Assembly: GCA_044867425.1 (NCBI GenBank)
Contig: JBIOUX010000039.1
Coordinates: 15,383-79,382, forward strand
Origin: Acidimicrobiia bacterium
GTDB taxonomy: Bacteria; Actinomycetota; Acidimicrobiia; IMCC26256; BP-133
DNA length: 64,000 nucleotides
Reading direction: 5' to 3'
A program made the translations under genes and the position numbers. Shown one piece after another: positions 22,128 to 48,836 of the stretch (position 1 is the stretch's first letter; every line of letters begins with the position of its first letter). The notes under the pieces are model-generated. The model saw nothing but the letters and a program-made list of their open reading frames with translations, ran no database searches and was not told where the DNA came from.

Positions 22128-22169
22128 GCTCCGCTCCTCGGTGCGTCGGCCCGCTCAGTCCCGGCAATC

Positions 22170-30104: not shown

Positions 30105-30737
30105 CTACATGGGGCGGAGGGCCATCCACACCGCCCGAGCGGTCTGGCGGCCGGGGTTTCCCCAACGGTGGGGGCGGTCGGTGCGGAAATGGACGGCGTC
30201 GCCTTTGCCCAGGCGGTACTCCCGGCCGTCGACCTCGAAGGTCATGGTCCCGTCGAGCACGAACACCAACTCCTCGCCGGGGTGCTCCATGGGGTTCTCC
30301 CCGCTCGATGCCCCCGGCTCGACCTCGGCCAGGGCGCCGGCCAGGAAGAACCGGCCGTAGGGACCGGAGATGCCCCCCAGATCGATCCCCCGGTGGGAGG
30401 TGTAGACCACCCGGCGCTCGTCGGCCGGTATGAACACCGCCGGTCCGGTCTCCTCGGCGTCCTCGTTCACGAAGTAGGCCACCGGCCGGTTGAGGGCGGC
30501 GGCCAGCTTGAGCAGGGTGGTGATGGTAGGCACCATGCCGGACCGCTCGATCTTGTGGATGGCCGCCGCCGAGACGTCGGCGCGGTCCGCCAGTTGCTGG
30601 AGCGACAGGCCCCGTTGGAGCCGCAGCTCGCGGAGCTTGGGCCCGATCGAGGTGACGATCTCGTCGAGCGAGCCGGGTGTTCCCCGGCTGGGCGGAGGGC
30701 CGCTGTCCGACCGGCCGACGGCTGCCTGCTCCTTCAC
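30105..30737 (-). CDS. XRE-family HTH regulator fused to a cupin sensor domain
   Basis: IGPKLRELRLQRGLSLQQLADRADVSAAAIHKIERSGMVPTITTLLKLAAALN (HTH_3), then cupin H.GEELVFVLDGTMTFEVDG.EY.L..GDAVHF. GTG 30737 (alternative GTG 30755). Confidence 0.85.
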   Translation of the reverse strand: MKEQAAVGRSDSGPPPSRGTPGSLDEIVTSIGPKLRELRLQRGLSLQQLADRADVSAAAIHKIERSGMVPTITTLLKLAAALNRPVAYFVNEDAEETGPAVFIPADERRVVYTSHRGIDLGGISGPYGRFFLAGALAEVEPGASSGENPMEHPGEELVFVLDGTMTFEVDGREYRLGKGDAVHFRTDRPHRWGNPGRQTARAVWMALRPM

Positions 30738-30772
30738 CGCTCCCCCTCGGGTCACGCACCCGTCAGACTCAC

Positions 30773-30800
30773 TTGACGAGCGGACTGCAATCAGTATAGT
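30773..30800 (+). promoter_or_regulatory. Sigma-70-like promoter TTGACG-N16-TATAGT upstream of the flavoprotein/nitrile hydratase operon
   Basis: TTGACG at 30773-30778, a 16-nt spacer, TATAGT at 30795-30800. The same TTGACG-N16-TATAGT arrangement recurs upstream of the paralogous flavoprotein gene (53127-53100, minus strand). Confidence 0.45.
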
Positions 30801-30830
30801 CAATGCCTCCTCACGTATCGTGAATGGTGG

Positions 30831-32033
30831 GTGGGCGTGCCGGCAAGGGTCATCGTCGTCGGAAACGGAGCTGGAGGGGTCGGCGCCACCGCGGCCGTCC
30901 GGGCCACGGACCCCGGGGCCGAGGTCAGCAACTGCTGGCCCGTCAGCGGCATCGACGTCGACCGCCGGACGGTCGACGTGGGGGGCCGGGGAGCAGCGGG
31001 CTGGGATCGCCTGATCCTCACCGCCGCGGCGTCGCCCGCCGGCCCCGCCGGGCTGCCCACCGACCTCGAGGGCCTCTATCCCGTGGCCGCCATCCCGTCG
31101 GGCAGCGACTGGGACCAGGTCCTGGCCTCGGTCAAGGTGGCGGTGGTGGTGGATGCCACCCCCGCCGGCCTGGAGATGGTGGCCACCCTGGCCTCGCGGG
31201 GCATCGAGACGCACGTGGTCGACCCGCAGGCCTCGGTTCTGGCCGGCTCAGTGGACCAGGAGATCGCCGCCCCGGTGGAGGAGTCGTGGGGCGAGATGGG
31301 CGTGAAAACCCACTTCAACACCCGGGTGGAGGACTACCTGGGCGAGGGCCGGGTGCAGGGTGTGCGCACCTCCGCGGGCGAGCTGCCCGCCGACCTGGTG
31401 GTGGTGTGCACCCGTCCGCCGGTGGCCAACGACCTGGCCGCCGCCGCCGGCCTGGAGATCTCCCCCGCCGGCGGCATCGTCGTCGATGATCACATGGCCA
31501 CCTCGCTGGCCGGGGTGTGGGCCGCCGGCGACGGCATCGAGCTGCCCGCCGGCGCCGCCCGCTTCGCCCTCCCCGACTCCCCCAGCCACGCCCACGCCCA
31601 GGGCCGGGTGGCGGGCACCAACGCCGCCGGCGGCAGCCGGACCTACCAGCCGGCCTATGTCCCCTGGGCCCTGTCGGCGGGCCGGTGGCTGATGGGCGGC
31701 GTCGCGTACGGCGAGACGCAGGCCACCGACCAGGGCGTCGCCTATGTGCTGGGCCAGGCGACGGGCATCTCCCGGGCCCGCTACTACCCGGACGTGAAGA
31801 AGGTGACGGTGAAGCTGCTGGCCGAGCCCGGTAGCCTGCGCCTGATCGGTGCGCAACTGGTGGGGGGCGAGGGCATCAAGGAGCGGGCCGGCTTCCTCGG
31901 CATGGCCGTCCGGATGGGCATCACCCTCACCGACCTCGCCTACATGGAGAACGTGTACTCCCCGCCCATCGGGGCGCTCAACGAGCCCATCGCCGTGGCC
32001 GCCCAGAACGGCCTGGCCTCCTTGGGGAGCTGA
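30831..32033 (+). CDS. Pyridine nucleotide-disulfide oxidoreductase (CoA-disulfide reductase/NADH oxidase-like), N-terminally deleted paralog
   Basis: VIVVGNGAGGVGA FAD motif, VAVVVDATPAGLEM NAD motif, AAGDGIE, and a C-terminal dimerisation domain. Aligns along its length with the 51680..53026 product but lacks ~48 aa that include its YSPCGIPY motif. Start GTG 30831 or 30837. Confidence 0.85.
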   Translation: MGVPARVIVVGNGAGGVGATAAVRATDPGAEVSNCWPVSGIDVDRRTVDVGGRGAAGWDRLILTAAASPAGPAGLPTDLEGLYPVAAIPSGSDWDQVLASVKVAVVVDATPAGLEMVATLASRGIETHVVDPQASVLAGSVDQEIAAPVEESWGEMGVKTHFNTRVEDYLGEGRVQGVRTSAGELPADLVVVCTRPPVANDLAAAAGLEISPAGGIVVDDHMATSLAGVWAAGDGIELPAGAARFALPDSPSHAHAQGRVAGTNAAGGSRTYQPAYVPWALSAGRWLMGGVAYGETQATDQGVAYVLGQATGISRARYYPDVKKVTVKLLAEPGSLRLIGAQLVGGEGIKERAGFLGMAVRMGITLTDLAYMENVYSPPIGALNEPIAVAAQNGLASLGS

Positions 32034-32035
32034 CG

Positions 32036-32344
32036 ATGAGACTGGGACTGGGACAGGGACTGGAGAAGGGACGGGGGAAAGCGTTGCAAGGAGCCCGCTG
32101 GCTGCGGTCGAACTCCGAGCACTACCTCCTCCTCGACGCCCAGACCCGCATGGCGGCCCGCTACGGGCGCCCCGCCCCGTCGCCGCCCAAGGGGGCGCGC
32201 GAGCTGTTCTGGCGCCAGGTCTTCGCCCCCACCTACCGTCGTCTCCCCTGGAAAGCCCGCCTGGCTCTCATCAACCGGATGCCCGGCAGCCACCGCCGGG
32301 ACTGGTCGAGCCGCTCTGTTCCCACCCGCCGGCCGGCCATCTGA
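32036..32344 (+). CDS. Hypothetical basic protein (102 aa)
   Basis: ATG lies 2 nt after the flavoprotein stop, so translational coupling is possible. GC3-rich from codon ~20. Sequence ...RELFWRQVFAPTYRRLPWKARLALINRMPGSHRR.... I recognise no family. Confidence 0.5.
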   Translation: MRLGLGQGLEKGRGKALQGARWLRSNSEHYLLLDAQTRMAARYGRPAPSPPKGARELFWRQVFAPTYRRLPWKARLALINRMPGSHRRDWSSRSVPTRRPAI

Positions 32345-32437
32345 GCCGGCCCCACGTTGCTGGATGTTTCACCGCAGTGCCAACGCCGTTGTAGACCCCA
32401 CCACAACTGACAACCCCCAGACCGAGGGAGGTCCCCT

Positions 32438-32923
32438 ATGCCAAAGACCGTCACCCACAAAGTGAGTGAAGGCGACACCCTGTACAACGTCGAAGAGAAG
32501 CTCTTCGAGGACATCCGGGCCAATCCGGGTGAGCAGGCCTACGTCTTCATCCACAGCGTGCCCTACGAAGCCTCCGTGGCCCTGGTCAACCTGCTGACCT
32601 CCACCCGGCTGGTCCGCAAGGGCTTCGACGTCAAGATCGTGCTCTACGGACCGGGCGTCCTCCTCGCCTCGGGCTCCCGCGGCTACCCCTCGGTAGGCAG
32701 CGAAGCCTTCCCCGGCCACCTGGCCATCAACAACCAGATCAAGACCCTCCTCAAGGAAGGGGCCACGATCTACGCCTGCCGCTTCGCCATGGGTGCCCTC
32801 TACGGCTTCCGGGAGGACGACCTCATCGAGGGCATCACGCCCTTCAACCCCCTCGACGTCCTCGACTCCGCCCTCACCGCCTGGCGGGCGGGCGCTTTCC
32901 AGATCAACACCTGGACGGTCTGA
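32438..32923 (+). CDS. DsrE/DsrF-like fold protein; candidate MSMEG_0572/Sll0783-family member
   Basis: GAGGGAGG RBS before ATG 32438. AYVFIHSVPYEASVALVNLL....V.KGFDVKIVLYGPGV and ATIYACRFAMGALYG resemble the DsrE-like sulfur-relay fold. The MSMEG_0572 assignment rests on context and memory only. Confidence 0.7.
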   Translation: MPKTVTHKVSEGDTLYNVEEKLFEDIRANPGEQAYVFIHSVPYEASVALVNLLTSTRLVRKGFDVKIVLYGPGVLLASGSRGYPSVGSEAFPGHLAINNQIKTLLKEGATIYACRFAMGALYGFREDDLIEGITPFNPLDVLDSALTAWRAGAFQINTWTV

Positions 32924-33003
32924 CCGGTATCGGGGTGGTGGGACGCCCGGCCTCGTAGGGGGGGCCGGGCGTCTCTCGCCTCGAGGGACACGAGGAGGTG
33001 CCC

Positions 33004-33666
33004 GTGGACAGCATCGCCGACATGGGCGGGATGCAGGGCTGGGGATCGGTGCCCTACGAGCCTGACGAGCCGCCGTTCCACGAGCCGTGGGAGGGGCGGG
33101 CCTTCGCCATGACGCTCCTGGCCATCAACCGGATCTCGGGGCAGAACCTCGACGCCATGCGTCATGCCCTGGCCCGCCTCCACCCCGTCGACTATCTGGT
33201 CGACGGCTACTACGGCCGCTGGCTCAACTGCGCCGAGCTCATGCTGGTCGACAGCGGCGTTATCGCTCCCGGGGCCATCGACGCCCGGGCCCGGCGCCTG
33301 CGGGGCGAGGACGTCGAAGAACCTCCCGAGCCGGAGCTCAACAAGCCCGACTACGCCGCCACCGGGCCCGGGTCCCTGCGCCAGGTCGACGACCAGCCCC
33401 TCTTCAAGGTGGGCCAGACGGTCCGGGCCAAGGACATCCATCCCACCGGCCACACCCGCCTGCCCCGCTACGTCCGGGGCCGGACGGGGGTGGTGCAGGG
33501 CATGCACCCCGCCGCGCTGCTCCCTGACACCCACGCCCACTTCCAGGGCGAGAACGCTCAGGCCGTCTACGACGTGGCCTTCGACTCGGCTGAGCTGTGG
33601 GGTCCGGACGGGGAGAGCTTCACCCTCCACATCGACTGCTACGAGACGTATCTGGAGGAAGTCTGA
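33004..33666 (+). CDS. nthB: Nitrile hydratase beta subunit
   Basis: [14 protein letters not shown]....[18 protein letters not shown]... and C-terminal [14 protein letters not shown]...........VY.V.F...ELWG are canonical NHase-beta blocks. GTG 33004 with GAGGAGG upstream (the ORF-track start 32998 is too close to the RBS). Confidence 0.92.
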
Positions 33667-34265
33667 TGACGACCACGCCCGCCACCGAACGAATCCCCCC
33701 CTCCCTGCGGACCGAGGCCCTGGAAGCGATCCTGACCGAGCGGGGCCTCGTCGACCCGGCCGTGCTCGACAAGTTCATCTCCATGTACGAGAACGACGTC
33801 GGACCCCTCAACGGGGCCAAGGTGGTGGCCAAGGCCTGGACCGATCCGGAGTACAAGGAGCGCCTGCTGGCCGACGGCACGGCCGCCATCGCCGAGCTGG
33901 GCTACAAGGGCCCTCAGGGCGAGTGCATCGAGGTGCTGGAGAACACCCCGACGCTCCACCACCTGGTGGTGTGCACGCTGTGCTCCTGCTACCCCTGGCC
34001 CGTCCTCGGCCTGCCCCCCTCCTGGTACAAGGACCCCGCCTACCGGGCGCGGGCGGTCCGGGAGCCGCGGGCGCTCGTGGCCGAGTTCGGTCTCGAGCTC
34101 GGTGACGACGTGGAGATCCGGGTGTTCGACTCCAGCTCCGAGGTGCGCTTCATGGTGCTGCCCGAGCGGCCCCCCGGCAGTGAATCCATGTCCGAAGAGG
34201 AGCTGGCCGCCCTGGTGACCCGCGACGCCATGACGGGCATCGCCAAGGTGACGCTGCCGGCGTGA
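33666..34265 (+). CDS. nthA: Nitrile hydratase alpha subunit, cobalt type
   Basis: Metal-binding claw [20 protein letters not shown]. Thr in VC-T-LCSC and Tyr after CSC mark Co-type enzymes. The ATG overlaps the beta-subunit stop (TGATG). Confidence 0.95.
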
Positions 34266-34266
34266 C

Positions 34267-34620
34267 GTGAACCTCGACATCGCCGGCCCCGCCGCCCCGC
34301 CCCGGTCCAACGGCGAGCTGGTCTTCACGTATCCGTGGGAGAGCCGGGCCTTCGGCCTGGCCGTCACCCTGCACGCCGGCGGGGCCTTCGAGTGGGAGGA
34401 CTTCCGCCAGCAGCTCATCGCCGCGGTGGGGCGCTGGGAGGCCGACCATCCCCGGGCCGAGGGATGGTCGTACTACACCTGCTGGCTCGAGGCCCTGGAA
34501 CAGGTTCTGGCCACCGAAGGCCTCGTTCTGGCCGACGACGTCGCGTGTCGGGCCGTCGAGCTGGCCGGACGTCCGTCCAGCCATGGCCACCGCCACGACG
34601 ACCACGGGCACGGGCACTGA
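34267..34620 (+). CDS. Nitrile hydratase accessory (activator/metallochaperone) protein with a His-rich tail
   Basis: ELVFTYPWESRAFGLAVTL......W.DFRQQLIA resembles the beta-subunit N-terminus, as in NHase activators. The C-terminus is SSHGHRHDDHGHGH. GTG lies 1 nt after the alpha stop. Confidence 0.85.
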   Translation: MNLDIAGPAAPPRSNGELVFTYPWESRAFGLAVTLHAGGAFEWEDFRQQLIAAVGRWEADHPRAEGWSYYTCWLEALEQVLATEGLVLADDVACRAVELAGRPSSHGHRHDDHGHGH

Positions 34621-34627
34621 GGCGGCC

Positions 34628-35041
34628 GTGTCCGAAGGTCGCTCCAAGACGCTGTCGGTGGCGGCCACCTGGGAGGGCGGATACCGGGCCCGGATGACTG
34701 TACGGGACCATGAGCTGGTGGCCGACGAGCCGGTGGCGGCGGGTGGCGGTGACGGCGGGCCGCAGCCCAGCGAACTGTTCCTGGCTGCCCTGGCCTCCTG
34801 CTTCGCGCTGGCCATCTACCACGTCGGCAAGAAACGGGACATCCACCTGACCGACCTGTCGGTGCGGGCCACCGGTGAGTACGAGGGACCCAAGTTCGGC
34901 CGCCTCCGGCTCGAGGTCACCTCGAGCACGCCGCGGGATGTCCTCGACGGTCTGGTGGAGCGGGCCAAGTCCGTCTGCTACGTCTCCAACACGCTGCGGG
35001 CCGTCTCCGACGTCGAAGTCGTCGTGGTGGAGGATGAGTGA
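34628..35041 (+). CDS. OsmC/Ohr-family peroxiredoxin-like protein
   Basis: GGGDGGPQPSELFLAALASCFALAIYHV and KSVCYVSNTL carry the two conserved Cys of OsmC. GTG 34628 avoids overlap; in-frame ATG 34583 would overlap the accessory gene by 38 nt. Confidence 0.85.
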   Translation: MSEGRSKTLSVAATWEGGYRARMTVRDHELVADEPVAAGGGDGGPQPSELFLAALASCFALAIYHVGKKRDIHLTDLSVRATGEYEGPKFGRLRLEVTSSTPRDVLDGLVERAKSVCYVSNTLRAVSDVEVVVVEDE

Positions 35042-35117: not shown

Positions 35118-35372
35118 GTGACCGAGACCGGTTCCCGCAGCGGCTACGACAGCACCGCGGAAAAGGCTCAGGGCCAGACGAAGAAGGTCACGGGCAAGCT
35201 CAGCGACGACATGGAGAAGGCAGAGGAAGGCGCGGTTCAGGAGACCCTCGCCCAGGAGCAGAAGATCAGGCCCTCGAGCCCTGGCAGCGCCTCAAGGCGG
35301 CTGAGGAGATGGAGGACAATCCCGGCCGGTAGGTCGGGCCTGACCTCGACAGCCTCAGGCTCATCCGCCTGA
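35118..35372 (+). CDS. Small hypothetical protein (weakly CsbD-like N-terminus); 3' end uncertain
   Basis: Strong RBS GAGAGGAGGAGGA 3-8 nt before GTG 35118. AEKAQGQTKKVTGKLSDDMEKAEEG is vaguely CsbD-like. The last ~35 codons are Arg/Ser-rich and an alternative frame looks more protein-like, so a frameshift or shorter product is possible. Confidence 0.3.
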   Translation: MTETGSRSGYDSTAEKAQGQTKKVTGKLSDDMEKAEEGAVQETLAQEQKIRPSSPGSASRRLRRWRTIPAGRSGLTSTASGSSA

Positions 35373-36017
35373 AGCTGATCCGCCCTCCAGCCGCCGGCGC
35401 TGTGCCTCGATGGCCGCCGTCCACTCGGCCCTGTCCTCGAAGGACTCCTCCATGGCCAGGTCGCCGTCCGGCTCCAGCCGTTCACCGGTGACCGGGTCGA
35501 GACGGACGACCTCCAGGCGGAAGAAGGCGGCGCCGGTGTCGGGGTCGGCCTCCACCGTCTGGCTCAGCCCGGTGCCGGTAGGGACGTGCATCTCGAGCCG
35601 CACCCAGGGCACGAGACCGGCCGACGCCGGCGAGCCGGACTCGGAGACCAGGACCCAGGCGCTGCCCTCCTGGGCGGCGGCGGCCAGGCGGGCCAGGCGC
35701 TCGGCGCGGGCCGCCGGCCCGGCCAGCTCCCGGTAGCGCATGGAGAAGCCGGCCCCGGCCACCAGGTTGATGTCCAGGTCGGCCAGGGGCAGCAGGGCCA
35801 GCGACGACGCCCGGTACACGATGTCGGAGGCGTCGGGCCAGGCCGCCACCAGGGCGGGCAGGTCCCCGCAGGAGCCCAGCTCGTCGGCCACCTTGCGCAC
35901 CAGCTCGACGGCCCGCTGGTAGAGATCGGGCCGGACCATGATGACGGGATACAGGCGCTCCTCGGCCGAGCTCCAGGTCGACAGCAGCTCGGCGGGCACC
36001 CCGAGTGGGATTGTCAT
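35361..36017 (-). CDS. Hypothetical protein (218 aa)
   Basis: ATG 36017. GC3-rich with normal composition (MTIPLGVPAELLSTWSSAEERLYPVIMVRPDLYQRAVELV...). I recognise no family. The rest of the 555-aa ORF is antisense junk over arcC. Confidence 0.55.
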   Translation of the reverse strand: MTIPLGVPAELLSTWSSAEERLYPVIMVRPDLYQRAVELVRKVADELGSCGDLPALVAAWPDASDIVYRASSLALLPLADLDINLVAGAGFSMRYRELAGPAARAERLARLAAAAQEGSAWVLVSESGSPASAGLVPWVRLEMHVPTGTGLSQTVEADPDTGAAFFRLEVVRLDPVTGERLEPDGDLAMEESFEDRAEWTAAIEAQRRRLEGGSASGG

Positions 36018-36095
36018 TCGCGCCCTCCCTCTACTATCGTGAACGCGAGGTTTCTCATCCTGTATGCCGCGCCGCCAGAGGAGGGGCCCGACGCA

Positions 36096-37082
36096 ATGGG
36101 CCGGATCGTAGTCCTCGCCTTGGGAGGCAACGCCCTGTGCCCCGTCGGAGCCGCGGGGACCTACGAGGAGCAGGAGCACAACGCCGCCCTCATGGCCCGC
36201 TCCGTCTGCTCGCTCATGTGGACGGGCTGGGACGTCGTGGTCGTGCACGGCAACGGCCCCCAGGTGGGCAACCTGGCCATCCAGCAGGAGGAGGGCTCGG
36301 ACCTCGTCCCGGCCCAGCCTCTCTTCGTCCTGGGCGCCATGACACAGGGCCAGCTCGGCAGCCTCCTCACCCTGGCCCTGCGCAAGGTGGCCGGTCCCCG
36401 GGGGCCCGACGTCGTGTCGGTGGTCACCCACGCCCTGGTCGACCCGGCCGATCCCGCCTTCTCCGACCCGACCAAGCCCATCGGGCCGTTCATGACGGCC
36501 GAGGAGGCGAAGGAGAACGCCGCCGCCCGGGGCTGGACAGTCAAAGAGGACGCGGGGCGGGGCTGGCGCCGGGTGGTGCCCTCCCCTGAGCCCCTGGGGC
36601 TCCTGGAGGCCCCCGCCATCCGGGCCCTGCTGGGGGAAGGCTTCCTCGTGGTGGCCGGTGGCGGCGGGGGCATTCCCCTTGTCCCCACCCGCGACGGGTA
36701 CCGGGGCGTGGAGGCGGTGATCGACAAGGACTACGCCGCCGCCGCCCTGGCCACCTCGCTCGGCGCTTCGGCCCTGGTGTTGGTGACGAGCGTGGAGTCG
36801 GTCCTCCTCGACTACGGCACCCCCGAGCAGCGGCCGGCGGAGGAGATGACCCTGGAAGACGCCGAGCGCCACCTGCACGACGGCCAGTTCCCCGAGGGCA
36901 GCATGGGCCCCAAGGTGCGCTCCGCCACCCGGTTCCTGCGGGCCGGCGGCGAGACCGCCGTCATCACCACCCCGGCGCTGGTCTACGCCTCCCTGGAAGG
37001 CACGGTGTCGGAGCTGGAGGGCCATCACGGGACCCGGATCGTGCGGTTGCGCCAGGTCGAAACGGAGAGCCCCCTGCTGTGA
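36096..37082 (+). CDS. arcC: Carbamate kinase
   Basis: RIVVLALGGNAL...VVVVHGNGPQVG...KPIGPF...GW.V.EDAGRGWRRVVPSP.P......I..L...G..VVAGGGGGIP...G.EAVIDKD.A...LA are canonical carbamate kinase blocks. Confidence 0.92.
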   Translation: MGRIVVLALGGNALCPVGAAGTYEEQEHNAALMARSVCSLMWTGWDVVVVHGNGPQVGNLAIQQEEGSDLVPAQPLFVLGAMTQGQLGSLLTLALRKVAGPRGPDVVSVVTHALVDPADPAFSDPTKPIGPFMTAEEAKENAAARGWTVKEDAGRGWRRVVPSPEPLGLLEAPAIRALLGEGFLVVAGGGGGIPLVPTRDGYRGVEAVIDKDYAAAALATSLGASALVLVTSVESVLLDYGTPEQRPAEEMTLEDAERHLHDGQFPEGSMGPKVRSATRFLRAGGETAVITTPALVYASLEGTVSELEGHHGTRIVRLRQVETESPLL

Positions 37083-38281
37083 CGCTGCCCGTCCTGCTCG
37101 TGGCCCACTCCACCCGGCCCCGGGGCGGCCTGGTGCACACCCTGTTCCTGGCCGAGGCCCTCCACCGCCTGGGCCAGCCCGTCGGTCTGGTGGCCCTGGG
37201 CGACCCGGCCGAGGGCCTGTTCCGGGCCACGGCCGTGCCCCACACGATCCTGCCCTCCCCGCCGCCGGCCCCGACGCTGGAGGAACGGGTGTTCGCCGCC
37301 GTCGACGCCCTGGAAGACGGGCTGCGGGGTCTGGTCAAGGGGCCCACCATCCTCCACGCCCAGGACTGCATCGCGGCCCGGGCCGCCGGGCGCATCCGCG
37401 ACGCCGACCGCTTCCCCGCCCTGACCGGTGTGCGCATCGTCCGCACCGTCCACCACTGCGACGACTTCACCACCGAGATCCTGGTCGAGTGCCAGCGCCG
37501 CTCCATCCACGACCCCGACCGGGTGCTGGTGGTGAGCCGGCAGTGGCAGGACATCCTGGCTGCCGACTACGACGTGAAGGCCGACATCGTGGCCAACGGC
37601 ATCGACCCGGATCGCTTCGGCCCGGCCGTTCCCGGTCAGCGGGATGAGCTCCGTTCCCGGCTGGGCGTGGGCGACGGCGGGTTCTTCGTGTTGACGGTGG
37701 GCGGCATCGAACCCCGCAAGGGGACCGCCACCCTGTTCGAGGCGCTGGCGGTTTTGAAGAGCCGCCTCGCCGTGGCCCCCGTGCTCGGCATCGTGGGCGG
37801 CCACTCCTTCCAGGACTACAAGGCGTACCGGGACGCCGCCCTGGCCCGCCTGCCCGAGCTCGGCCTGGAACTGGGACGGGACGTCGTCCTCCTCGGCACC
37901 GTCTCCGATGAAGAGCTCGGCGGCTGGTACCGGGCCGCCGACGCCTTCGCCTTCCCCTCGGTCAAGGAGGGCTTCGGCCTGGTGGTGCTGGAGGCGATGG
38001 CGATGAGTCTCCCCGTGGTGGCGACCGACATCCCCGTCTTCGCCGAGTACCTGACCGACGGGAAGAATGCCCTCCTGGCGCCGGCCGGTGACGCCACCGG
38101 CCTGGCCGGCGCCCTGGAACGGCTGGCCACCGACCCGGCGTTACGGGAGCGTCTGGTCGCCGGCGGCGCCGACGTGGTGGGCCGCTTCACCTGGGAAGCC
38201 AGCGCCCGTCGCCACATCGACATCTACGCCGCCGTGGAAGAGACGCAGAAGCTGCCGTCCGTCCCGTCCGTCCTGGAGTAG
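37079..38281 (+). CDS. GT4-family glycosyltransferase (candidate MSMEG_0565-type)
   Basis: C-terminal GT-B motif FAFPSVKEGFGLVVLEAMAMSLPVVATDIPVFAEY. The GTG start overlaps the arcC stop (GTGA). Confidence 0.88.
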   Translation: MTLPVLLVAHSTRPRGGLVHTLFLAEALHRLGQPVGLVALGDPAEGLFRATAVPHTILPSPPPAPTLEERVFAAVDALEDGLRGLVKGPTILHAQDCIAARAAGRIRDADRFPALTGVRIVRTVHHCDDFTTEILVECQRRSIHDPDRVLVVSRQWQDILAADYDVKADIVANGIDPDRFGPAVPGQRDELRSRLGVGDGGFFVLTVGGIEPRKGTATLFEALAVLKSRLAVAPVLGIVGGHSFQDYKAYRDAALARLPELGLELGRDVVLLGTVSDEELGGWYRAADAFAFPSVKEGFGLVVLEAMAMSLPVVATDIPVFAEYLTDGKNALLAPAGDATGLAGALERLATDPALRERLVAGGADVVGRFTWEASARRHIDIYAAVEETQKLPSVPSVLE

Positions 38282-40430: not shown

Positions 40431-40433
40431 CCG

Positions 40434-40862
40434 TCACTGCCCGTTGGTGTAGCGCTCGCCGGGCGGGCGGTCGGCGGCGTAGGGGTGGAGGGTGTAGCGG
40501 ATCCGGCGGTCGGCGCTCGCCTGGCGCTCCAGGCGGAAGCCGGGCTCGTTGGGCGGCCGGTTGACCAGGAAGGACAGGCCCGTCGTCTGGCGGCCCAGGC
40601 GGGCGTCGTAGGCGCTCACCCGGATGTACTGGTTGGGGAAGGCCTCCCGGCACTTGCGCACCTCCTGGAGGACGGCGGCCGGGTCGGAGATGTCGAACAT
40701 GGGCAGCCCCCACATCTCCCAGTAGGCGTTGCGGGGGTGGGGGTCGTCGGTGAACTCCACGGCCAGAGCCCAGCCGTTCTCGATGGCGTAGTTGGCCTGG
40801 GCGCCGATCTCGTCGTCGGTCAGATCGGGCAGGTAGGAGAAGGTGCCTTGGGTGAGCCGCAT
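40434..40862 (-). CDS. cbbS: RuBisCO small subunit (red-type, with C-terminal extension)
   Basis: [21 protein letters not shown]....[25 protein letters not shown] is canonical. 142 aa. Confidence 0.93.
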
Positions 40863-40878
40863 GGATGCTCCGCTCCTC

Positions 40879-42393
<1,515 letters not shown>

Positions 42394-42515: not shown

Positions 42516-42989
42516 ATGCCCAAGATCACCCCCAACCTCTGGTTCGACACGGAAGGACAGGAGGCGGCCGAGTTCTACGTGTCGGTCTTTCCGAACTCGA
42601 AGATCACCAACGTCACCCACTACACCGAGGCCGGCCCGCGACCGGCCGGCACCGTGCTGACCGTCGAGTTCGTCCTCGACGGGCAGGAGTTCGTCGCCAT
42701 CAACGGCGGCCCGGAGTTCACGTTCGACGAGGCGATCTCCCTCATGATCACCTGCGAGGACCAGGACGAGATCGACTACTACTGGGCCAAGCTCTCCGAA
42801 GGCGGCGAAGAGGGGCCGTGCGGTTGGCTCAAGGACCGCTACGGCCTGTCCTGGCAGGTCGTCCCGGGCGGCATGGCCGACGCGCTCAACGACCCGGACC
42901 AGGGCCGCGCCACGCGCGCCATGACGGCGATGCTGGGCATGAAGAAGATCGACATCGCCGCCCTCCAGGCCGCCGCTGATCAGGCCTGA
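42516..42989 (+). CDS. VOC-family protein (PhnB / 3-demethylubiquinone-9 3-methyltransferase-domain type)
   Basis: MPKITPNLWFD..G.EAAEFYVSVFPNSKI..........G....V..VEF.L.GQ.F.AINGGP.F.F.EAIS....C..Q.E.D.YW.KL......CGWLKDRYG.SWQVVP. Confidence 0.85.
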   Translation: MPKITPNLWFDTEGQEAAEFYVSVFPNSKITNVTHYTEAGPRPAGTVLTVEFVLDGQEFVAINGGPEFTFDEAISLMITCEDQDEIDYYWAKLSEGGEEGPCGWLKDRYGLSWQVVPGGMADALNDPDQGRATRAMTAMLGMKKIDIAALQAAADQA

Positions 42990-43963
42990 GGCGGCAGGCC
43001 GGTGACGGGCTCGGCGGTCAGGTCGATGACCGTGGCCGTCTCCGCTCCCAGGCGGGCCCGCAGCAGGCCGGAATCGTCGATGGTGCCCACCACGGCGGCG
43101 TCCAGGCCCCGTTCCAGGAACGGGCGGGCACAGTCCTCCTCCTGGCCCGGCGGGGCGCACAGGAGGAAGGCGAAGCAGGGAAAGGACACCACCCAGGCGG
43201 ACAGCGACACCCCGGTTGGCTGGGGCAGGGCGTCGAGGTCGACGGTGACCCCGAGGCGGTGGCATTCCAGGAGCATGGCCAGGGATCCGAGCAGGCCGGG
43301 CATGCTCACGTCCTTGGCCGCCACCGCCGCCCCCGACTCGGCCACCGCGGCCAGGGTGCGGACGTCACCGCCCAGCCGGGTGCCCCGGGCGTCGAAGGAG
43401 GCGAAGAACGGGAAGTCGGCCCGCATGGTGCCCTGGGTGCAGCAGGCCACCAGCAGGCTCTGGCCGGCGGCGGCGTGGCGGGCGGCGAGCACCGGTCCAT
43501 CGGCCCGGCCCAGGCCGAAGGCCGACAGGGCCGGGGGACCGTCGCGCACGGTCAGGTGCCCGCCCACCACCGGCACCTGGTAGAGCATGGAGGCGTGGCG
43601 CATGCCCTCCAGGGCCTTGCGAGCCACCAGCTCGGGGCCGGTGACGGTGTCGACCACGGCCAGGGGCCGGGCGCCCATGGCGGCCAGGTCGTTGACGTTG
43701 GCCAGCACGGCGGCCACGCCGGCACCGAAGGGGTCGGCCTCCAGGAACGGCGGCCAGATGGCCTCGCCCCCGACCACCATGGTGGCCTCCTTGTCGACCA
43801 CCACGGCCCCGTCGTCGCCCGGCCCGGCCAGCCAGTCCCCCGCCCCCAGCACCTCGCCCACCAGGGCGATGGGCGCCTTGTTGCGCAGGCCGGGATGGGC
43901 GCGCACGGCGGCCACCACCGATTCCAGGGTGGCGCTCGTGGTCAGCGCCTGCTCGAGGGCCAT
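42980..43963 (-). CDS. AIR-synthase-related (PurM-like) protein, candidate sll0787/MSMEG_0571 family
   Basis: PurM-type N-domain GPGDDGAVV....MVVGGEAI.P.F...DPFGAGVAAVLANVNDLAAMGARPLAVVD and C-domain KDVSMPGLLGSLAMLLE. Lies 9 nt downstream of fdrA. Confidence 0.85.
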   Translation of the reverse strand: MALEQALTTSATLESVVAAVRAHPGLRNKAPIALVGEVLGAGDWLAGPGDDGAVVVDKEATMVVGGEAIWPPFLEADPFGAGVAAVLANVNDLAAMGARPLAVVDTVTGPELVARKALEGMRHASMLYQVPVVGGHLTVRDGPPALSAFGLGRADGPVLAARHAAAGQSLLVACCTQGTMRADFPFFASFDARGTRLGGDVRTLAAVAESGAAVAAKDVSMPGLLGSLAMLLECHRLGVTVDLDALPQPTGVSLSAWVVSFPCFAFLLCAPPGQEEDCARPFLERGLDAAVVGTIDDSGLLRARLGAETATVIDLTAEPVTGLPPQA

Positions 43964-43972
43964 ACCCGCAGA

Positions 43973-45538
43973 TTAGGCGGAGGTGGTGGAGTTGGCCCCG
44001 GCGGGGGCGAGGACGAGCTCGGGCCGGCGGGTGGCGATGGCGGCGGCCGCCAGCGCCGCGCGGGCGGCGGTGGGAGCGACGAGGCACCCGGCCTCGGCCA
44101 GGGTGGCCTGCTGAGCGGCCAGTCCCTGGGGGTCGGCCTCGGTGCCGAGCACGTAGGCCACGATCTGGGTGCCGGCGGCCCGCACCTCGGCGCAGACCGG
44201 GGCCAGGGCGCCGGCGGGGTCGTCATTGGCGCCGTAGCCCAGGACGACGTCGAGAAGGACGACGGCCGTGGCCGGATTCCGGCTTTCCTCGGCCAGGTGC
44301 TCGAGTCGGATGGACGGATCGATCATCGGGTGAGGCCGGCCCTTGGTGTACTCCTCCTCACCCAGGTCGAGGCAGATGTGGCTGTCGGGCGGGGCGGGCA
44401 CGTCCCAGCCCTTGCGCAGCGGCGTGTTGGAGTGGACCGGGCCCAGCACGCCCGAGAGGAGCACCAGCGCCTCGTAGCACAGGGTGCCGCCCGAGTAGAG
44501 GCCACGGACCAGGCGGCGCCCGGGGTCCATGGTGGCGCAGGCGGCCCGCACCGCCTCGGCCAGGCCGCCGGCGGCGGGGTCGGGCGTGTCCTTCCCGGCC
44601 AGCTCCAGGGCCAGGAGCGCCCCTTCCTCCAGGGTGGTGGCCAGGCGCACCGTGTCCGGGACGGGGATGGGCTCCTTCAAGCCGATGAGGGCGGCGGCCA
44701 GGGGCGTGTCGCCGGCTTCGGCCACCACCGCCTGGGCCACCTCAGGCGATGGCGGCTTGGACACCAGCAGGATCACGTCGGTGCCCGGGTCCTGGCGCAG
44801 GGCGGCCACGGCCAGGCGGGCCATGCGCCCCCCGACCGCTTCCGACAGGTCGCGCCCGCCCACCCCGATGACGGCGGAGACCCCTGCCCCCCACCGGTCG
44901 AGGAGGCACATGACCTCCTGGGCTCCGGTGCCGGCGGCGGCGACCACGCCCACCCGGCCCCGGCGCACGACGTTGGCGAAGCCGAGCCCGCATCCTCCCA
45001 GCACGGCCGTCCCCGCCCCCGGCCCCATGACCAGCCGGCCCAGCGCCCGGCCCCGGTCCTTCAGCTCGATTTCCTCCTCCACCGGGACGTTGTCGGAGAA
45101 CAACAGCACGTGGAGCCCGGCGGTCAGGGCCTTGTGGGCTTCGAGGGCGGCGTAGTCGCCGGGGACGGACACGATGGCCAGGTTGGCGTCGGGAAGCTCG
45201 GCCACCGCCTCCTCCAGGCTGAGGGGTTCCGGCGCGGTGCCCGCCCCGTTCCTGCCGCCGCCACCGCGCCTGGGGCCACCCCCGAGGGCGGCGTGGCCGG
45301 CGGCCAGGGCCGCTTCGGCCGCCTCGTCGTCGCCGGCCCGGGCGGCCAGCACGCAGTCGTTGGCCCCGGCCCCGGCCAGGTCGAAGCCCTCGCCCTCCAT
45401 GATGGCGACGTTGGCCGGGGTGGCCATGGCCGCCGTGGCCCACTCGACCCCGTCGATCTCCCGCATGGCCCGGGTGGCGGCCATCTGGAGGACCGAGTCG
45501 ACGTAGGCGTCCTTGAGCAGGCGCAGCTTGTGGCTCAC
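43973..45538 (-). CDS. fdrA: FdrA-family protein (succinyl-CoA-synthetase-alpha-like; oxalurate/oxamate pathway-associated)
   Basis: The N-terminus ..LLKDAYVDSVLQMAATRAM.....VEWATAAMATPANVAIMEGEGF parallels E. coli FdrA. CoA-ligase-like Gly-rich repeats follow. GTG 45538. Confidence 0.88.
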   Translation of the reverse strand: MSHKLRLLKDAYVDSVLQMAATRAMREIDGVEWATAAMATPANVAIMEGEGFDLAGAGANDCVLAARAGDDEAAEAALAAGHAALGGGPRRGGGGRNGAGTAPEPLSLEEAVAELPDANLAIVSVPGDYAALEAHKALTAGLHVLLFSDNVPVEEEIELKDRGRALGRLVMGPGAGTAVLGGCGLGFANVVRRGRVGVVAAAGTGAQEVMCLLDRWGAGVSAVIGVGGRDLSEAVGGRMARLAVAALRQDPGTDVILLVSKPPSPEVAQAVVAEAGDTPLAAALIGLKEPIPVPDTVRLATTLEEGALLALELAGKDTPDPAAGGLAEAVRAACATMDPGRRLVRGLYSGGTLCYEALVLLSGVLGPVHSNTPLRKGWDVPAPPDSHICLDLGEEEYTKGRPHPMIDPSIRLEHLAEESRNPATAVVLLDVVLGYGANDDPAGALAPVCAEVRAAGTQIVAYVLGTEADPQGLAAQQATLAEAGCLVAPTAARAALAAAAIATRRPELVLAPAGANSTTSA

Positions 45539-45744: not shown

Positions 45745-45773
45745 TCACGCCTGGCTGCGAGAGGGAGGTCGAC

Positions 45774-46913
45774 GTGGATGTCGAAACGCCGGTAGACCTC
45801 GCCTGGCTGATCACCGAGCTCCAGAGCCGCGGCCTGCGGGCCGAGACCCCGATGGAGGGCCGGCGGGGCGGGGCGGGCCCCTCGGACTCGGGGATGCTCT
45901 GGATCGAAGGGGTGGCCGTCACCGTCCCCACCGACGCCCCCTGGGCCCGCTCCTCCCCCTATTCGCTGCGGCCCGAGGATGACGGCTTTGGCATCTACCG
46001 GGACGGCGCCCGGCTGGCCGGGGCCTCGGGCAGCCAGCGGCCCCGCTACTACGACCTGACCACCGCCGACGGGATTCCCTACTGGAAGATCGCCCCCCTC
46101 CACCTCGACTCGCTGGCCTCCACCGTCCTCCAGGCCTGCGCCTACTGGGGCAACGACGACCAATGCCGCTTCTGCGGGATCGGCCTGTCGCTGGAGGCCG
46201 GCCGTACCATCGCCCGCAAGTCACCCGAGCAGCTGGCCGAGGTGGCGGTGGCGGCCAAGGAGCTCGACGGCGCCGTCGACGCCACCCTCACCACCGGCTC
46301 GACCTCCGCCCCCGACAAGGGCGCCCTCTACGTGGGCCGCTGCGGGGCGGCCGTCAAGGCGGCCGCCGGCCTGCCCGTCGAGGTCCAGTTCGAACCCCCC
46401 GCCGACCTCGACGCCATCGACGCCGTGGCCGACATGGGCATCGACTCGGTCGGCATCCACGTGGAGACCTTCGACCCCGAGGTCCTGGCCCGGGTGGCGC
46501 CGGCCAAGGCCCGCACCGGCGTCGAGGGCTACTTCGCGGCCTGGGAGCGGGCCGTGGCCCGCTTCGGGCAGGGCCAGGTCTCCACCTACGTGATCCTGGG
46601 CATGGGCGAGGACCCCGAGCTCACCGTGGCCGGGTGCCGGCGGGCCATCGACATGGGCGTCTACCCCTTCGTGGTGCCGCTGCGGCCGATCGCCGGCACC
46701 CTCATGGAGGACCACGTACCGCCCTCGGCCGCCTACACCGAGTCCATCTACCGCCGGGTGGTGCCCTACCTCACCGCCCGGGGCATCACCGCCGGGGCCG
46801 TCTCCGCCGGCTGCGCCCGCTGCCAGGCCTGCTCGGCCATGGGGGCCATGGAGCGCACCGTCGAGCTGGGGGGCCGGCGGGCCAGCATCCCGCTCCAGGA
46901 CGCCCGGAGCTGA
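45774..46913 (+). CDS. Radical SAM protein, candidate MSMEG_0568 family
   Basis: Cys cluster CAYWGNDDQCRFCG (C-x8-C-x2-C), a TIM-barrel-like core (DSVGIHVETFDPEVLARVAP.K........F..W..A...F..G.VSTYVILGMGE) and C-terminal CARCQAC. Followed without a gap by its usual GNAT partner. Confidence 0.85.
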   Translation: MDVETPVDLAWLITELQSRGLRAETPMEGRRGGAGPSDSGMLWIEGVAVTVPTDAPWARSSPYSLRPEDDGFGIYRDGARLAGASGSQRPRYYDLTTADGIPYWKIAPLHLDSLASTVLQACAYWGNDDQCRFCGIGLSLEAGRTIARKSPEQLAEVAVAAKELDGAVDATLTTGSTSAPDKGALYVGRCGAAVKAAAGLPVEVQFEPPADLDAIDAVADMGIDSVGIHVETFDPEVLARVAPAKARTGVEGYFAAWERAVARFGQGQVSTYVILGMGEDPELTVAGCRRAIDMGVYPFVVPLRPIAGTLMEDHVPPSAAYTESIYRRVVPYLTARGITAGAVSAGCARCQACSAMGAMERTVELGGRRASIPLQDARS

Positions 46914-47426
46914 GTGGTGGCCGAACGCAGCGTCCTCGCCCGCCAGGTTCCCGGGCTCGAAGCCGCCGGGCGGCTGCCGCTGGCGTGCCGGATGGCGCTC
47001 AGCGCCGAGGAGCTCGCCCTGCACCATCGCATCCGCCACCAGGTGTTCGTCGACGAACAGCGCATCTTCACCGGGTCCGACGTCGACGTCCACGACGACG
47101 AGGCCGCCACCATCCGGGTCATCGGGACGGCGGGAGCGGTGGTGGCGGGGGCCGTCCGCCTGTACCCGCTGGAGCCCACCGGCGAGCTGTGGCTGGGCGA
47201 CCGGCTGGCGGTGCTGCCCGCCTTCCGCATCCAGGGGCTGGGCAAACCGCTCGTCCGCTTCGCCGTGGCCACCGCCGCCCGCCTCGGGGGCCGGGAGATG
47301 CAGGCCCACATCCAGCCGCCCAACGTCCGCTTCTTCGAGCGGCTGGGCTGGGAGTGCCGGGGCCCGGTGGAGATCTACGTCGGGACCCCCCACCAGCCCA
47401 TGGCCATCGATCTGACTGCTCTTTGA
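46914..47426 (+). CDS. GNAT N-acetyltransferase, candidate MSMEG_0567/Sll0786 family
   Basis: HHRIRHQVFVDEQRIF...D.HD......IG........GAVRLYP, then FRIQGLGKPLVRFAV..A...G...M.A.IQ..NV.FFE.LGW. The GTG abuts the preceding TGA. Confidence 0.85.
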   Translation: MVAERSVLARQVPGLEAAGRLPLACRMALSAEELALHHRIRHQVFVDEQRIFTGSDVDVHDDEAATIRVIGTAGAVVAGAVRLYPLEPTGELWLGDRLAVLPAFRIQGLGKPLVRFAVATAARLGGREMQAHIQPPNVRFFERLGWECRGPVEIYVGTPHQPMAIDLTAL

Positions 47427-47432
47427 GGTGCC

Positions 47433-48836
47433 ATGACACTCGTCCTGCCTGAGGACGTGGCCGTCGTCAACGTCGGCCTCTCGCTCTTCACCGATGCCAT
47501 CCGGGACCAGGACCGGCCCGTCCAGAGCGTCGACTGGCGCATCCCGGCCGGCGGCGACCTCGAGGCGGTGGCCGCCCTCCGCCGGCTCTACGGCCCCAAG
47601 GCGGAAGCGATCGACGCCGCCAACGCCGAGGTGGTCCGCCGGCTCGACCAGGGTGTGCCCATGCTGGTGGGGCTGGAGCCCGCCTCCCGGGTCGTGCCCG
47701 ACCTGGGCGAGCGCACGATCCTGCACTGCGGCCCCCCCATCGGCTGGGACGACATGTGCGACCCGCTGCGCCGCTCGGTCCAGGCGGCGGTGGTGGCCGA
47801 GGGCTGGGCCGCCAGCCCCGGTGAGGCGGGCGCCCTGGTGGCCGGAGGCCAGGTCGCGCTCGAGCCGGCCAACGCCCACATGACGGTCATTCCCATGGCC
47901 AGCGCCATCGGGCCCTCGGCCTGGGTGTGGGTGGTCGAGTGCGGCGAGGCCGGCACCCGGGCCTTCTCCGCCGTCAACCAGGGGCCGGGCGAGGTGGCCT
48001 GGTTCGGCCGGGACACCCCCGCCGCCGTCCAGCGCCTGGTCTTCCTGGCCGAGGTGGCGGGCCCCCTGCTGGCGGAAGCCGTGGGCCGGGCCGGGCCCAT
48101 GGACGTCTTCGGCCTGGCCGCCCAGGGCCTGCAGATGGGCGACGACGTCCACATGCGCAGCCAGGCCACCACCAACATCCTGTGGCGCCACCTCCTACCC
48201 CACCTGGTGGCCCTGGAGGACCCCCGGCGCGTCGACCTGGCCACCTTCCTGGCGTCCAACCACCTCTTCTTCCTCAACCTGGCCATGGCCGGGGCCCGCT
48301 CCCTCACCGAGTGGGCCCGGCAGGTCCCGGGTTCGAGCGTGGTGTGGAGCATGGCCCGCAACGGGACGACCTTCGGGGTCAAGCTGCCGGGCCTGGACGA
48401 CTGGTTCCTGGCCCCCGCCCCGCCCGTCACCCATGCCCTCTACTACTCGGGCGAGGGGCCGGAGACGAGCGCCCCGGACATCGGCGACAGTGCTCTCCTC
48501 GAGCTGGTCGGCCTCGGCGGTCCGGCGGGGGCGGCCTCGCCCGCCGTGGCCTCCTTCGTGGGCGGCACCATGGACGACGCCATCCGCCTCACCCTGGACA
48601 TGGACCGCATCTGCGCCGGGCGCAGCAGCCGCTTCAAGCTGCCCCTGCTGGACTTCCGGGGGACGCCGATCGGGGTGGACGTCCGCCGGGTGGTGGAGAC
48701 CGGCATCACCCCCAGGATCAACACCGGGATCCTCCACGTCTCGGCCGGGACGGGACAGGTGGGCGCCGGGGTGGCGGTCGCTCCCCTGGAGTGCTTCTCC
48801 CAGGCCCTCCTCGCCCTCGACCGCCACCTGGCTTGA
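47433..48836 (+). CDS. DUF1116-family protein (YlbE/AllG-like)
   Basis: 467 aa; ...ILHCGPPI.W..MC.P.R.......V.EGWA and MRSQATTNIL...L... match my recollection of YlbE-type proteins. Gene order fdrA / DUF1116 / DUF2877 matches E. coli fdrA-ylbE-ylbF. Confidence 0.8.
   Translation: MTLVLPEDVAVVNVGLSLFTDAIRDQDRPVQSVDWRIPAGGDLEAVAALRRLYGPKAEAIDAANAEVVRRLDQGVPMLVGLEPASRVVPDLGERTILHCGPPIGWDDMCDPLRRSVQAAVVAEGWAASPGEAGALVAGGQVALEPANAHMTVIPMASAIGPSAWVWVVECGEAGTRAFSAVNQGPGEVAWFGRDTPAAVQRLVFLAEVAGPLLAEAVGRAGPMDVFGLAAQGLQMGDDVHMRSQATTNILWRHLLPHLVALEDPRRVDLATFLASNHLFFLNLAMAGARSLTEWARQVPGSSVVWSMARNGTTFGVKLPGLDDWFLAPAPPVTHALYYSGEGPETSAPDIGDSALLELVGLGGPAGAASPAVASFVGGTMDDAIRLTLDMDRICAGRSSRFKLPLLDFRGTPIGVDVRRVVETGITPRINTGILHVSAGTGQVGAGVAVAPLECFSQALLALDRHLA

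Follow-up and report, generated by a model that had tools for sequence, protein, structure and literature searches.

Why would the genes of a predicted cobalt nitrile hydratase share one string with those of a disulfide-reductase-like flavoprotein, a DsrE-like protein and an OsmC protein? The question is raised by a locus in a 64-kb, high-GC (~72%) stretch of the genome of an Acidimicrobiia bacterium (hereafter the window, meaning the whole of the DNA analyzed), for which an original prediction had proposed that the hydratase stands in for the nitrilase of Nit1C gene clusters and that its sulfur-related neighbors might serve the maturation or repair of its metal site. The gene string, gaps and motifs described there for positions 30105-35041 were all recovered when reading frames, gene junctions and the GC content of third codon positions (GC3) were inspected: the flavoprotein gene is separated by 2 nt (TGA-CG-ATG) from an open reading frame (ORF) of 102 amino acids (aa), nthB and nthA overlap by 1 nt in TGATG, and GC3 is 0.85-0.94 for every gene of the string, the 102-aa ORF included. 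The hydratase operon is not a stand-alone catabolic operon. Judged from the genes that surround it, it is probably a conserved module of a distinct Nit1C/gpr subfamily, in which it would constitute a non-orthologous replacement of the Nit6803-type nitrilase downstream of the Sll0783/NitB gene.

What Nit1C does has stayed obscure for some 20 years; only loose ties connect it with cyanide assimilation, nitrogen starvation and peroxide resistance (PMC7815647, PMC6039565). The described clusters, which comprise nitB-nitH (Synechocystis sll0783-sll0787; Pseudomonas cyanotrophs) and the gpr genes MSMEG_0565-0572 of M. smegmatis, have the Sll0783, radical SAM, GNAT and glycosyltransferase families in common with the window, where these four signature families all exceeded their cutoffs (Table 1). 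The window's relative of the AIR-synthase-like protein scored below its cutoff, and identities to the Agrobacterium vitis cluster range from 36 to 56%. Here, family calls followed the curated cutoffs of NCBIfam/TIGR and the gathering scores of Pfam, and the Pfam scans took in every window ORF of coding-like composition. The product of the gene at 32438, for which a comparison with the MSMEG_0572 profile had been proposed, scored well above the TIGR04044 cutoff. On the A. vitis plasmid, the Nit1C genes are arranged in the order Sll0783 - nitrilase - radical SAM - GNAT - AIR-synthase-like - glycosyltransferase - MSMEG_0570 - MSMEG_0569, so that there, as in the window, a hydrolytic enzyme directly follows the Sll0783 gene, which in both cases is also followed by a hairpin. 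The hydratase, placed directly after its own Sll0783-family gene, thus matches the position of the A. vitis nitrilase, as had been supposed, and queries with the A. vitis nitrilase, MSMEG_0569 and MSMEG_0570 gave no tblastn match in the window or in 81 loci.

The spread of this arrangement was followed through a scan of one genome per species, in which 347 of 185,579 species-representative genomes encoded a relative of the window's Sll0783 subfamily; the scan patterns fit that subfamily and did not match the single canonical protein compared, that of A. vitis. The best 80 of these 347 loci formed the comparison set, in which the relatives were viewed to 10 kb on each side and searched with the window's proteins, and the A. 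vitis Nit1C proteins were run by tblastn against the window and the 81 loci. The loci come mostly from Acidimicrobiia, and also from Nonomuraea, Streptosporangium, Asanoa, Lapillicoccus, Dormibacterota and a few further taxa. Many of the relatives are metagenome-assembled genomes (MAGs); no record with the exact sequence of the window's Sll0783 protein was found, and its nearest relatives, at 94% identity, are Acidimicrobiia MAGs. Gene content, synteny and family membership were read directly from these loci, 46 of which are fully flanked (at least 9 kb on both sides) and 64 of which have at least 4 kb downstream. The XRE-cupin regulator, the flavoprotein, the 102-aa protein (hereafter b102) and the Sll0783 protein were each found in all 46 fully flanked loci, including six without a hydratase; nthB, nthA and the accessory gene were present in 40 and OsmC in 39. 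In 58 of the 60 hydratase-bearing loci nthB lies within 2.5 kb of a Sll0783-family gene, a closeness which argues that the arrangement is not due to chance. The DsrE-like, OsmC and flavoprotein neighbors are, in short, conserved with nthBA in relatives, and the lack of such conservation that would have refuted the original prediction was not observed.

The slot following the Sll0783 gene has more than one kind of occupant. Of the 64 loci that extend far enough downstream, 53 have nthB-nthA-activator next to the Sll0783 gene, eight have an Amidohydro_2 gene instead and three have neither, and the 46 fully flanked loci resolve into 40 with the hydratase and six with Amidohydro_2, both occurring together in none. 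The Amidohydro_2 gene, which encodes 288 aa, was detected in nine of the 80 fetched loci and in L083 (single loci are given by number where they must be told apart), all of them without a hydratase, and no hydratase locus has it. In Asanoa hainanensis (L030) it lies between the Sll0783 gene and the glycosyltransferase gene, in the place that nthB-nthA-accessory holds in its sister L032. Since Amidohydro_2-type loci are scattered over at least four separate places in the core-gene tree, the swap happened repeatedly. Three unrelated hydrolytic enzymes, the nitrilase, the nitrile hydratase and Amidohydro_2, alternate next to the Sll0783 gene, and this alternation is the main support for the hydratase supplying the step of the canonical nitrilase. 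Such a swap speaks for an essential C-N hydrolysis or hydration step in the pathway; it also warns that the common step may not strictly be nitrile hydration. Around the exchanged enzyme, the subfamily keeps a core of Sll0783, radical SAM, GNAT, AIR-synthase-like and glycosyltransferase genes. The distance correlation of the hydratase with the core genes was weak to moderate (Spearman 0.24 for the alpha and 0.53 for the beta subunit) and was not used as evidence.

The hydratase is predicted to be of the cobalt type by the families of its alpha subunit, beta subunit and activator as well as by its metal motif. In nitrile hydratases, a Thr in this motif marks the cobalt type and a Ser the iron type; the window's alpha subunit, which also matches PF02979 with 283.8 bits, reads VVCTLCSCY, and CTLCSC was conserved in 60 of the 61 nthA copies of the window and its relatives. 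The closest solved structures are cobalt nitrile hydratases for the alpha subunit and cobalt-type hydratase beta chains for nthB. The activator, presumably of the self-swapping type, shows homology to the beta subunit's N-terminal half (TIGR03889, PF21006) and ends in HGHRHDDHGHGH, with His-rich C-termini in 47 of 61 activator copies from the window and relatives. The beta-alpha-activator order, the CTLCSC motif, the relation of the activator to the N-terminal half of beta and a close alpha-subunit similarity are all shared with the classical cobalt hydratase operons (Pseudonocardia thermophila; amidase-beta-alpha-P14K of Geobacillus/Bacillus; nhlBAE of Rhodococcus), from which the window differs by having no amidase or CobW-type partner and by the embedding of the operon in a Nit1C-like cluster. 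The earlier statement that neither an amidase nor a CobW-type GTPase adjoins the operon holds for the whole 64-kb window, where Pfam scans of the coding-like ORFs detected no amidase, no CN-hydrolase (nitrilase) and no CobW. No cobalt transporter stands beside the operon, and a CorA-like transporter gene lies 20 kb away.

Compared with Nit1C, then, the variant has a cobalt nitrile hydratase with its activator (in a minority, Amidohydro_2) in the place of the nitrilase, has MSMEG_0569 and MSMEG_0570 replaced by a CoA-disulfide-reductase-like flavoprotein and an unrelated protein of 85-102 aa, and adds OsmC, AllFGH with carbamate kinase, the XRE-cupin regulator and, in relatives, xcbABCDE-like genes; its genes in the window do not form one contiguous operon. 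Full-text literature searches returned no paper joining nitrile hydratase, AllFGH or coenzyme M genes to Nit1C/Sll0783 clusters, and, while each gene by itself is recognized by standard curated models, no description of the cluster variant or of the three-way alternation appears to exist in the literature searched. Cobalt nitrile hydratases are familiar chiefly as catalysts in industry, and the arrangement indicates a physiological setting for them in nature; the existence of cultured carriers (Nonomuraea, Streptosporangium, Asanoa) makes experiments feasible.

Table 1. Features of the nitrile hydratase locus, with positions in the window unless a related locus is named.
Feature	Position	Strand	Evidence or remark
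XRE-cupin transcriptional regulator	30105..~30755	-	Pfam HTH_3 and Cupin_2; start codon uncertain
Strong sigma-70-like promoter TTGACG-16-TATAGT, upstream of the flavoprotein gene	30773..30800	+	10/12 consensus matches
Flavoprotein, CoA-disulfide-reductase/NADH-oxidase-like, degenerate copy	30831..32033	+	Pyr_redox_2, Pyr_redox_dim
b102, conserved basic helical protein, 102 aa	32036..32344	+	Core ~85 aa, motif MPGSHRxxW; no known family
MSMEG_0572/Sll0783 (NitB) family protein, DsrE-like	32438..32923	+	TIGR04044, 201.9 bits (cutoff 109.85)
GC-rich intercistronic hairpin, right after the Sll0783-family stop codon	32939..32974	+	-52.9 kcal/mol, z = -4.66
Nitrile hydratase beta subunit, nthB	32998..33666	+	TIGR03888, 190.8 bits (cutoff 152.2)
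Nitrile hydratase alpha subunit, nthA, predicted cobalt type	33666..34265	+	TIGR01323, 292.4 bits (cutoff 249.85)
Hydratase accessory (activator) protein, His-rich tail	34267..34620	+	TIGR03889, 74.3 bits (cutoff 46); PF21006
OsmC/Ohr-family protein, both cysteines present	34583..35041	+	PF02566, 67.2 bits (above Pfam cutoff)
unk218, conserved 218-aa protein	35361..36017	-	No Pfam or NCBIfam match
Carbamate kinase	36096..37082	+	NF009007, 277.6 bits (cutoff 266); TIGR00746, 332 bits
MSMEG_0565-family glycosyltransferase, Nit1C/gpr signature	37079..38281	+	TIGR04047, 343.7 bits (cutoff 259.85)
sll0787-like AIR-synthase-like protein (NitF-like)	42980..43963	-	TIGR04049 best match, 239.3 bits, below cutoff 321.3
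FdrA/AllF-like protein	43973..45538	-	NF004760, 411.3 bits, just below cutoff 433
MSMEG_0568-family radical SAM protein (NitD)	45768..46913	+	TIGR04043, 391.6 bits (cutoff 303.7)
MSMEG_0567/Sll0786-family GNAT (NitE)	46914..47426	+	TIGR04045, 103.6 bits (cutoff 68.45)
AllG (DUF1116), oxamate carbamoyltransferase subunit	47433..48836	+	PF06545, 209.6 bits
AllH (DUF2877), oxamate carbamoyltransferase subunit	48928..49710	+	PF11392, 83.8 bits
Phosphosulfolactate synthase (ComA/XcbB-like)	50880..51683	+	TIGR03849, 239.8 bits, below cutoff 280
Full-length flavoprotein paralogue with redox cysteine (YSPCGIPYVHG, Cys42 loop)	51680..53026	-	84% identical to the L006 cluster-position copy
Amidohydro_2 examples in related loci	L039 11394-12260; L030 10489-11337; L083 13679-14536
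xcbABCDE-like block inside the cluster of related loci	L083 1598-6993; L084 1-2933

The partner proteins of the hydratase are, as their distribution suggests, core parts of the cluster in their own right, and the flavoprotein, b102, the Sll0783 protein and OsmC probably form a thiol/persulfide carrier and redox set. For the Sll0783 protein, the score against the Pfam DsrE family PF02635 (22.2 bits) falls marginally below the gathering score of 22.7, and because a sequence search of the PDB with the family gave nothing significant, its fold was approached through structure prediction. The resulting model (mean predicted local distance difference test, pLDDT, 77.4) matched 3pnx, 3mc3, 1jx7, 2hy5 and 2d1p in Foldseek (E values from 2e-6 to 4e-4, probability 1.0), by which the protein is predicted to have a DsrE/YchN/TusD-like fold. 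Its residue C114 (YACRF), invariant in alignment A1, is located at a strand-helix junction of the model. The b102 protein was found in 79 of the 81 loci and has 1016 homologues, all annotated as hypothetical and none with a Pfam domain, and searches of the PDB by sequence and by fold yielded no match. Its ratio of nonsynonymous to synonymous substitution rates (dN/dS) of 0.15-0.21 against relatives identifies it as a real gene under purifying selection. The proposed comparison of the 32036 product with the MSMEG_0570 profile produced no match, and b102 was rejected as a member of that family on the absence of an NCBIfam and of a tblastn match and on an hhalign probability of 0.7%. In 46 of 56 loci OsmC is the same-strand neighbor of the accessory gene; in the window its ATG (34583) falls within that gene, so that translation may really begin slightly farther downstream. 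In one locus (L012, minus strand, ~10600-11400) the activator and OsmC form one in-frame ORF, the only real fusion among the 56 loci. As a Rosetta-stone link this fusion was judged too weak, being confined to a single MAG, with no counterpart in L010 and an in-frame stop in L006, and it may be an assembly artefact.

The flavoprotein of the string calls for a correction. The redox cysteine loop is indeed absent from the 30831 copy, as the original prediction had it; the absence results from a lineage-specific deletion, and the orthologues keep the loop. From residue 70 of the paralogue on, the copy is 61% identical to the full-length paralogue encoded elsewhere in the window, and it lacks ~41 residues including YSPCGIPYVHG, a deletion that recurs in L001-L005; nearly all cluster-position flavoproteins outside the window's clade with a readable N-terminus retain this motif. 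Because the loop is kept in orthologues and the deletion is confined to the window's clade, the Cys-less state is to be seen as local degeneration and not as a design feature. The gene is split into two ORFs in L001 and L004 (115 + 303 aa at 8316-9607 of L001, the closest long-contig relative), and the split in L001 would fit a decay still in progress. No other gene of the cluster has a higher dN/dS (0.27-0.39), yet the value is below 1, and the status of the gene as a neutral pseudogene was not established. By these sequence comparisons the window's Cys-less flavoprotein appears to be a decaying lineage-specific duplicate, with the intact copy 20 kb away beside ComA, where the paralogue gene is convergent with the ComA gene and overlaps its stop codon. 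The closest solved structures of the paralogue are NADH oxidase, CoA-disulfide reductase and CoA-persulfide reductase, and both copies score below the TIGR03385 cutoff of 578.8 (155.5 bits for the 30831 copy and 232.7 bits for the paralogue). The canonical NAD(P)H-binding GxGxxG was never seen in the subfamily (the two window copies, and L006-L081 where readable), most readable copies having E-A-S/T-P-L-G at this position, and the usual mode of NAD(P)H use may not apply to the subfamily. An assignment of the flavoprotein to MSMEG_0569 was rejected, its best hits being CoA-disulfide reductase models and tblastn with the A. vitis MSMEG_0569 being negative.

Further modules accompany the Nit1C-type core. 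The genes for carbamate kinase and the AllF-like, AllG and AllH proteins are interleaved with Nit1C-type genes in the window, and they are absent from the published Nit1C/gpr gene lists (PMC7815647, PMC6039565). The allantoin pathway of E. coli (AllFGH and AllK) likewise combines the AllG and AllH Pfam families with an FdrA-like protein and a carbamate kinase; the window differs from it by the interleaving and by the absence of allantoin pathway families from its Pfam scans; the substrate of the AllFGH-like enzyme in the window is probably not oxalurate. The ComA-like gene recurs in 28 of the 46 fully flanked relatives. Two relatives, according to independent gene calls, carry an xcbABCDE-like block encoding ComA, DUF7714, Lyase_1, a pyridoxal phosphate (PLP) enzyme resembling 1-aminocyclopropane-1-carboxylate (ACC) deaminase and a second Lyase_1, and all five genes occur within 10 kb on either side in 19 of 45 full-length loci. 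Outside these loci, the XcbA-like DUF7714 matches only six plasmids, among them those of Xanthobacter autotrophicus Py2, Mycolicibacterium chubuense NBB4 and Nocardioides JS614, which are alkene degraders using coenzyme M; the match in Py2 is a hypothetical gene directly upstream of phosphosulfolactate synthase, in the position of xcbA. Thus, the relatives have homologues of all five XcbABCDE genes of Py2 in one block, in agreement with the published five-gene coenzyme M pathway (PMC9457059), whereas in the window the ComA/XcbB homologue was found without homologues of XcbA, C, D or E, and no alkene or epoxide genes were seen. The block in relatives suggests that chemistry resembling that of coenzyme M occurs in soil Actinomycetota and Dormibacterota. 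The added modules (AllFGH with carbamate kinase, the coenzyme M-type set, the single-cysteine flavoprotein and OsmC) offer tangible starting points, open to test, for finding the substrate and for working out what the DsrE-like protein does.

If the hydratase has replaced the nitrilase, it would act on the same cyano compound as the canonical enzyme and stop at the carboxamide, and, more tentatively, the variant-specific AllFGH and carbamate kinase may release the amide nitrogen via carbamoyl phosphate. Such a release would imply a cyano group borne by a heteroatom, the amide then being a carbamoyl group on that heteroatom. Several observations weigh against the replacement. Of the eight canonical Nit1C families, three are missing or replaced, the cluster of the window is spread over ~23 kb and interrupted by RuBisCO genes, and the window holds no amidase to finish the release of ammonia. 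Amidohydro_2 enzymes are not known to use nitriles as substrates, and the step in common may therefore be another C-N hydrolysis or hydration. With xcbA, C, D and E missing from the window, the coenzyme M link is indirect for this organism. The absence of a nitrilase applies to the 64-kb window and, in relatives, to 10 kb on each side, and a nitrilase gene could be present elsewhere in the genome. An ordinary nitrile/aldoxime catabolic operon that neighbors unrelated redox genes by chance is nevertheless highly improbable: the alpha subunit aligns closely over its whole length with well-studied industrial cobalt hydratases and the gene order is the classical one, but the adjacency to Sll0783 across Acidimicrobiia, Streptosporangiales, Micromonosporaceae and Dormibacterota largely refutes this explanation, the hydratase alternates with Amidohydro_2 in the same slot, the window contains neither amidase nor nitrilase, and no aldoxime-dehydratase family turned up among its scanned ORFs. 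The maturation set of the original prediction, in which the flavoprotein, the DsrE-like protein and OsmC would mature or repair the cysteine-sulfinic and -sulfenic ligands of the cobalt site, fares little better and is very unlikely. Tight linkage in one transcription unit, the position of OsmC directly after the activator gene and the in-frame ORF of L012 would fit it, but the flavoprotein, b102 and the Sll0783 protein persist in the hydratase-less loci, as does OsmC in loci such as L030 and L039, and the Sll0783 family is a hallmark of the nitrilase-type Nit1C, whose nitrilases have no oxidized-cysteine metal site. This persistence and this company of nitrilases make such a role unlikely. 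Moreover, the redox cysteine is gone from the window's flavoprotein although strong purifying selection still acts on the hydratase genes, the lone fusion comes from a MAG whose close relative L010 does not have it, and cobalt hydratases are established to need only their activator, through self-subunit swapping (PMC3511329).

The sulfur-containing substrates that the original prediction had named as an alternative gain indirect support from the coenzyme M biosynthesis-like module of relatives. The sulfur-handling neighbors would also be accounted for if the hydratase homologue acted on a cyano group carried by sulfur, as in thiocyanate or in an organic or protein thiocyanate, in place of a carbon nitrile. 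Such an activity is unlikely, if less so than the alternatives above; the substrate, the direction of the reaction and the roles of the sulfur proteins are all inferred. The thiocyanate hydrolase of Thiobacillus thioparus is a homologous cobalt enzyme with the same cysteine-claw site and a sulfur-bound cyano group as substrate; its model is the second-best for the window's alpha subunit, to which its solved chains also match. A DsrE-fold protein with an invariant cysteine and a CoA-persulfide-reductase-like flavoprotein are among the neighbors, relatives have a coenzyme M-like thiol pathway, and a carbamoyl-handling module is present. However, the alpha subunit reaches only 194.3 bits against the thiocyanate hydrolase cutoff of 291.45 and passes that of nitrile hydratase, and the window enzyme has two subunits, not three, its beta subunit being a single chain where the thiocyanate hydrolase subunits are known to be split. 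Quite unlikely, as a more specific scheme, is a thiol-based route by which the cluster would assimilate cyanide or heteroatom-bound cyano groups. The cyano group would be captured on sulfur, either by the invariant cysteine of the Sll0783 protein or by a coenzyme M-like thiol from the xcb-like module, for example through cyanolysis of a disulfide or persulfide held in its redox state by the CoA-disulfide-reductase-like flavoprotein. The nitrile hydratase would turn R-S-C≡N into an S-carbamoyl group, the AllFGH-like enzyme would phosphorolyse this group to carbamoyl phosphate, and carbamate kinase would give ATP, ammonia and CO2, a chemistry equivalent to the cyanide-ligand synthesis of HypF/HypE in reverse. 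With its nitrilase, canonical Nit1C would need a single step for the same outcome, which, were the route true, would explain why AllFGH and carbamate kinase are found only in the hydratase and Amidohydro_2 variants.

The XRE-cupin regulator, whose dN/dS is 0.04-0.11, is transcribed from the minus strand divergently to the operon, as previously described. In the divergent intergenic region, a conserved promoter and a direct-repeat-like motif were noticed by eye. Shuffled sequence gave 0.2 sigma-70-like sites per region as a control for this promoter, and a related motif repeats ~20 nt downstream (CGTATCGTGAATG; element 30773-30825, ATCGTGAATG). The element TTGAC...AGTATAGT.AA.G recurs 5' of the flavoprotein gene in loci of Acidimicrobiia, Streptosporangiales and Dormibacterota. 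The 30773-30825 element is likely the regulated promoter with its operator and a candidate operator of the XRE-cupin protein; no simple inverted repeat that could serve as operator was found in the divergent intergenic region. The genes of the flavoprotein, b102 and the Sll0783 protein sit, together with the hydratase operon, behind this single promoter-like site, and no terminator-like site was detected inside the gene string, although a GC-rich hairpin does follow the Sll0783 gene. At the same position, a hairpin with z < -2 was found in 43 of 80 loci, whereas only 1 of 81 control segments had one; it is conserved, in about half of the relatives, as structure and not as sequence, and it also occurs in the canonical Nit1C of A. 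vitis (L082 5985-6010). This hairpin is probably an attenuator or an mRNA-stabilizing element, and its conservation 3' of the Sll0783 gene suggests that the Sll0783 protein may be made in excess of the downstream enzyme.

Downstream of OsmC, the carbamate kinase gene has a sigma-70-like promoter of its own at 36011-36040, and its stop codon overlaps the start of the glycosyltransferase gene. The NitF-like protein is 36% identical to its A. vitis Nit1C counterpart. The unk218 gene recurs in 25 of 81 loci, close to carbamate kinase or radical SAM genes, and L083 encodes a 104-aa counterpart of its N-terminal portion. Genes for CbbX and the small (~40440-40860) and large subunits of RuBisCO occupy 39396-42393 on the minus strand, midway through the cluster, and a CbbR-like LysR regulator gene (29189-30094) flanks the cluster. 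The LysR and RuBisCO/CbbX genes were rejected as cluster members, being confined to the window's own clade (L001-L004), and the set suggests an autotrophic Acidimicrobiia host. Farther downstream, a 344-aa ORF (56762-57793, plus strand) has a GC3 of 0.95 and no Pfam match. Upstream, at 20938-22154 on the minus strand, the gene of an encapsulin shell protein (Linocin_M18) lies beside an encapsulated-ferritin-like gene (EncFtn), forming the pair of an iron-storage nanocompartment.

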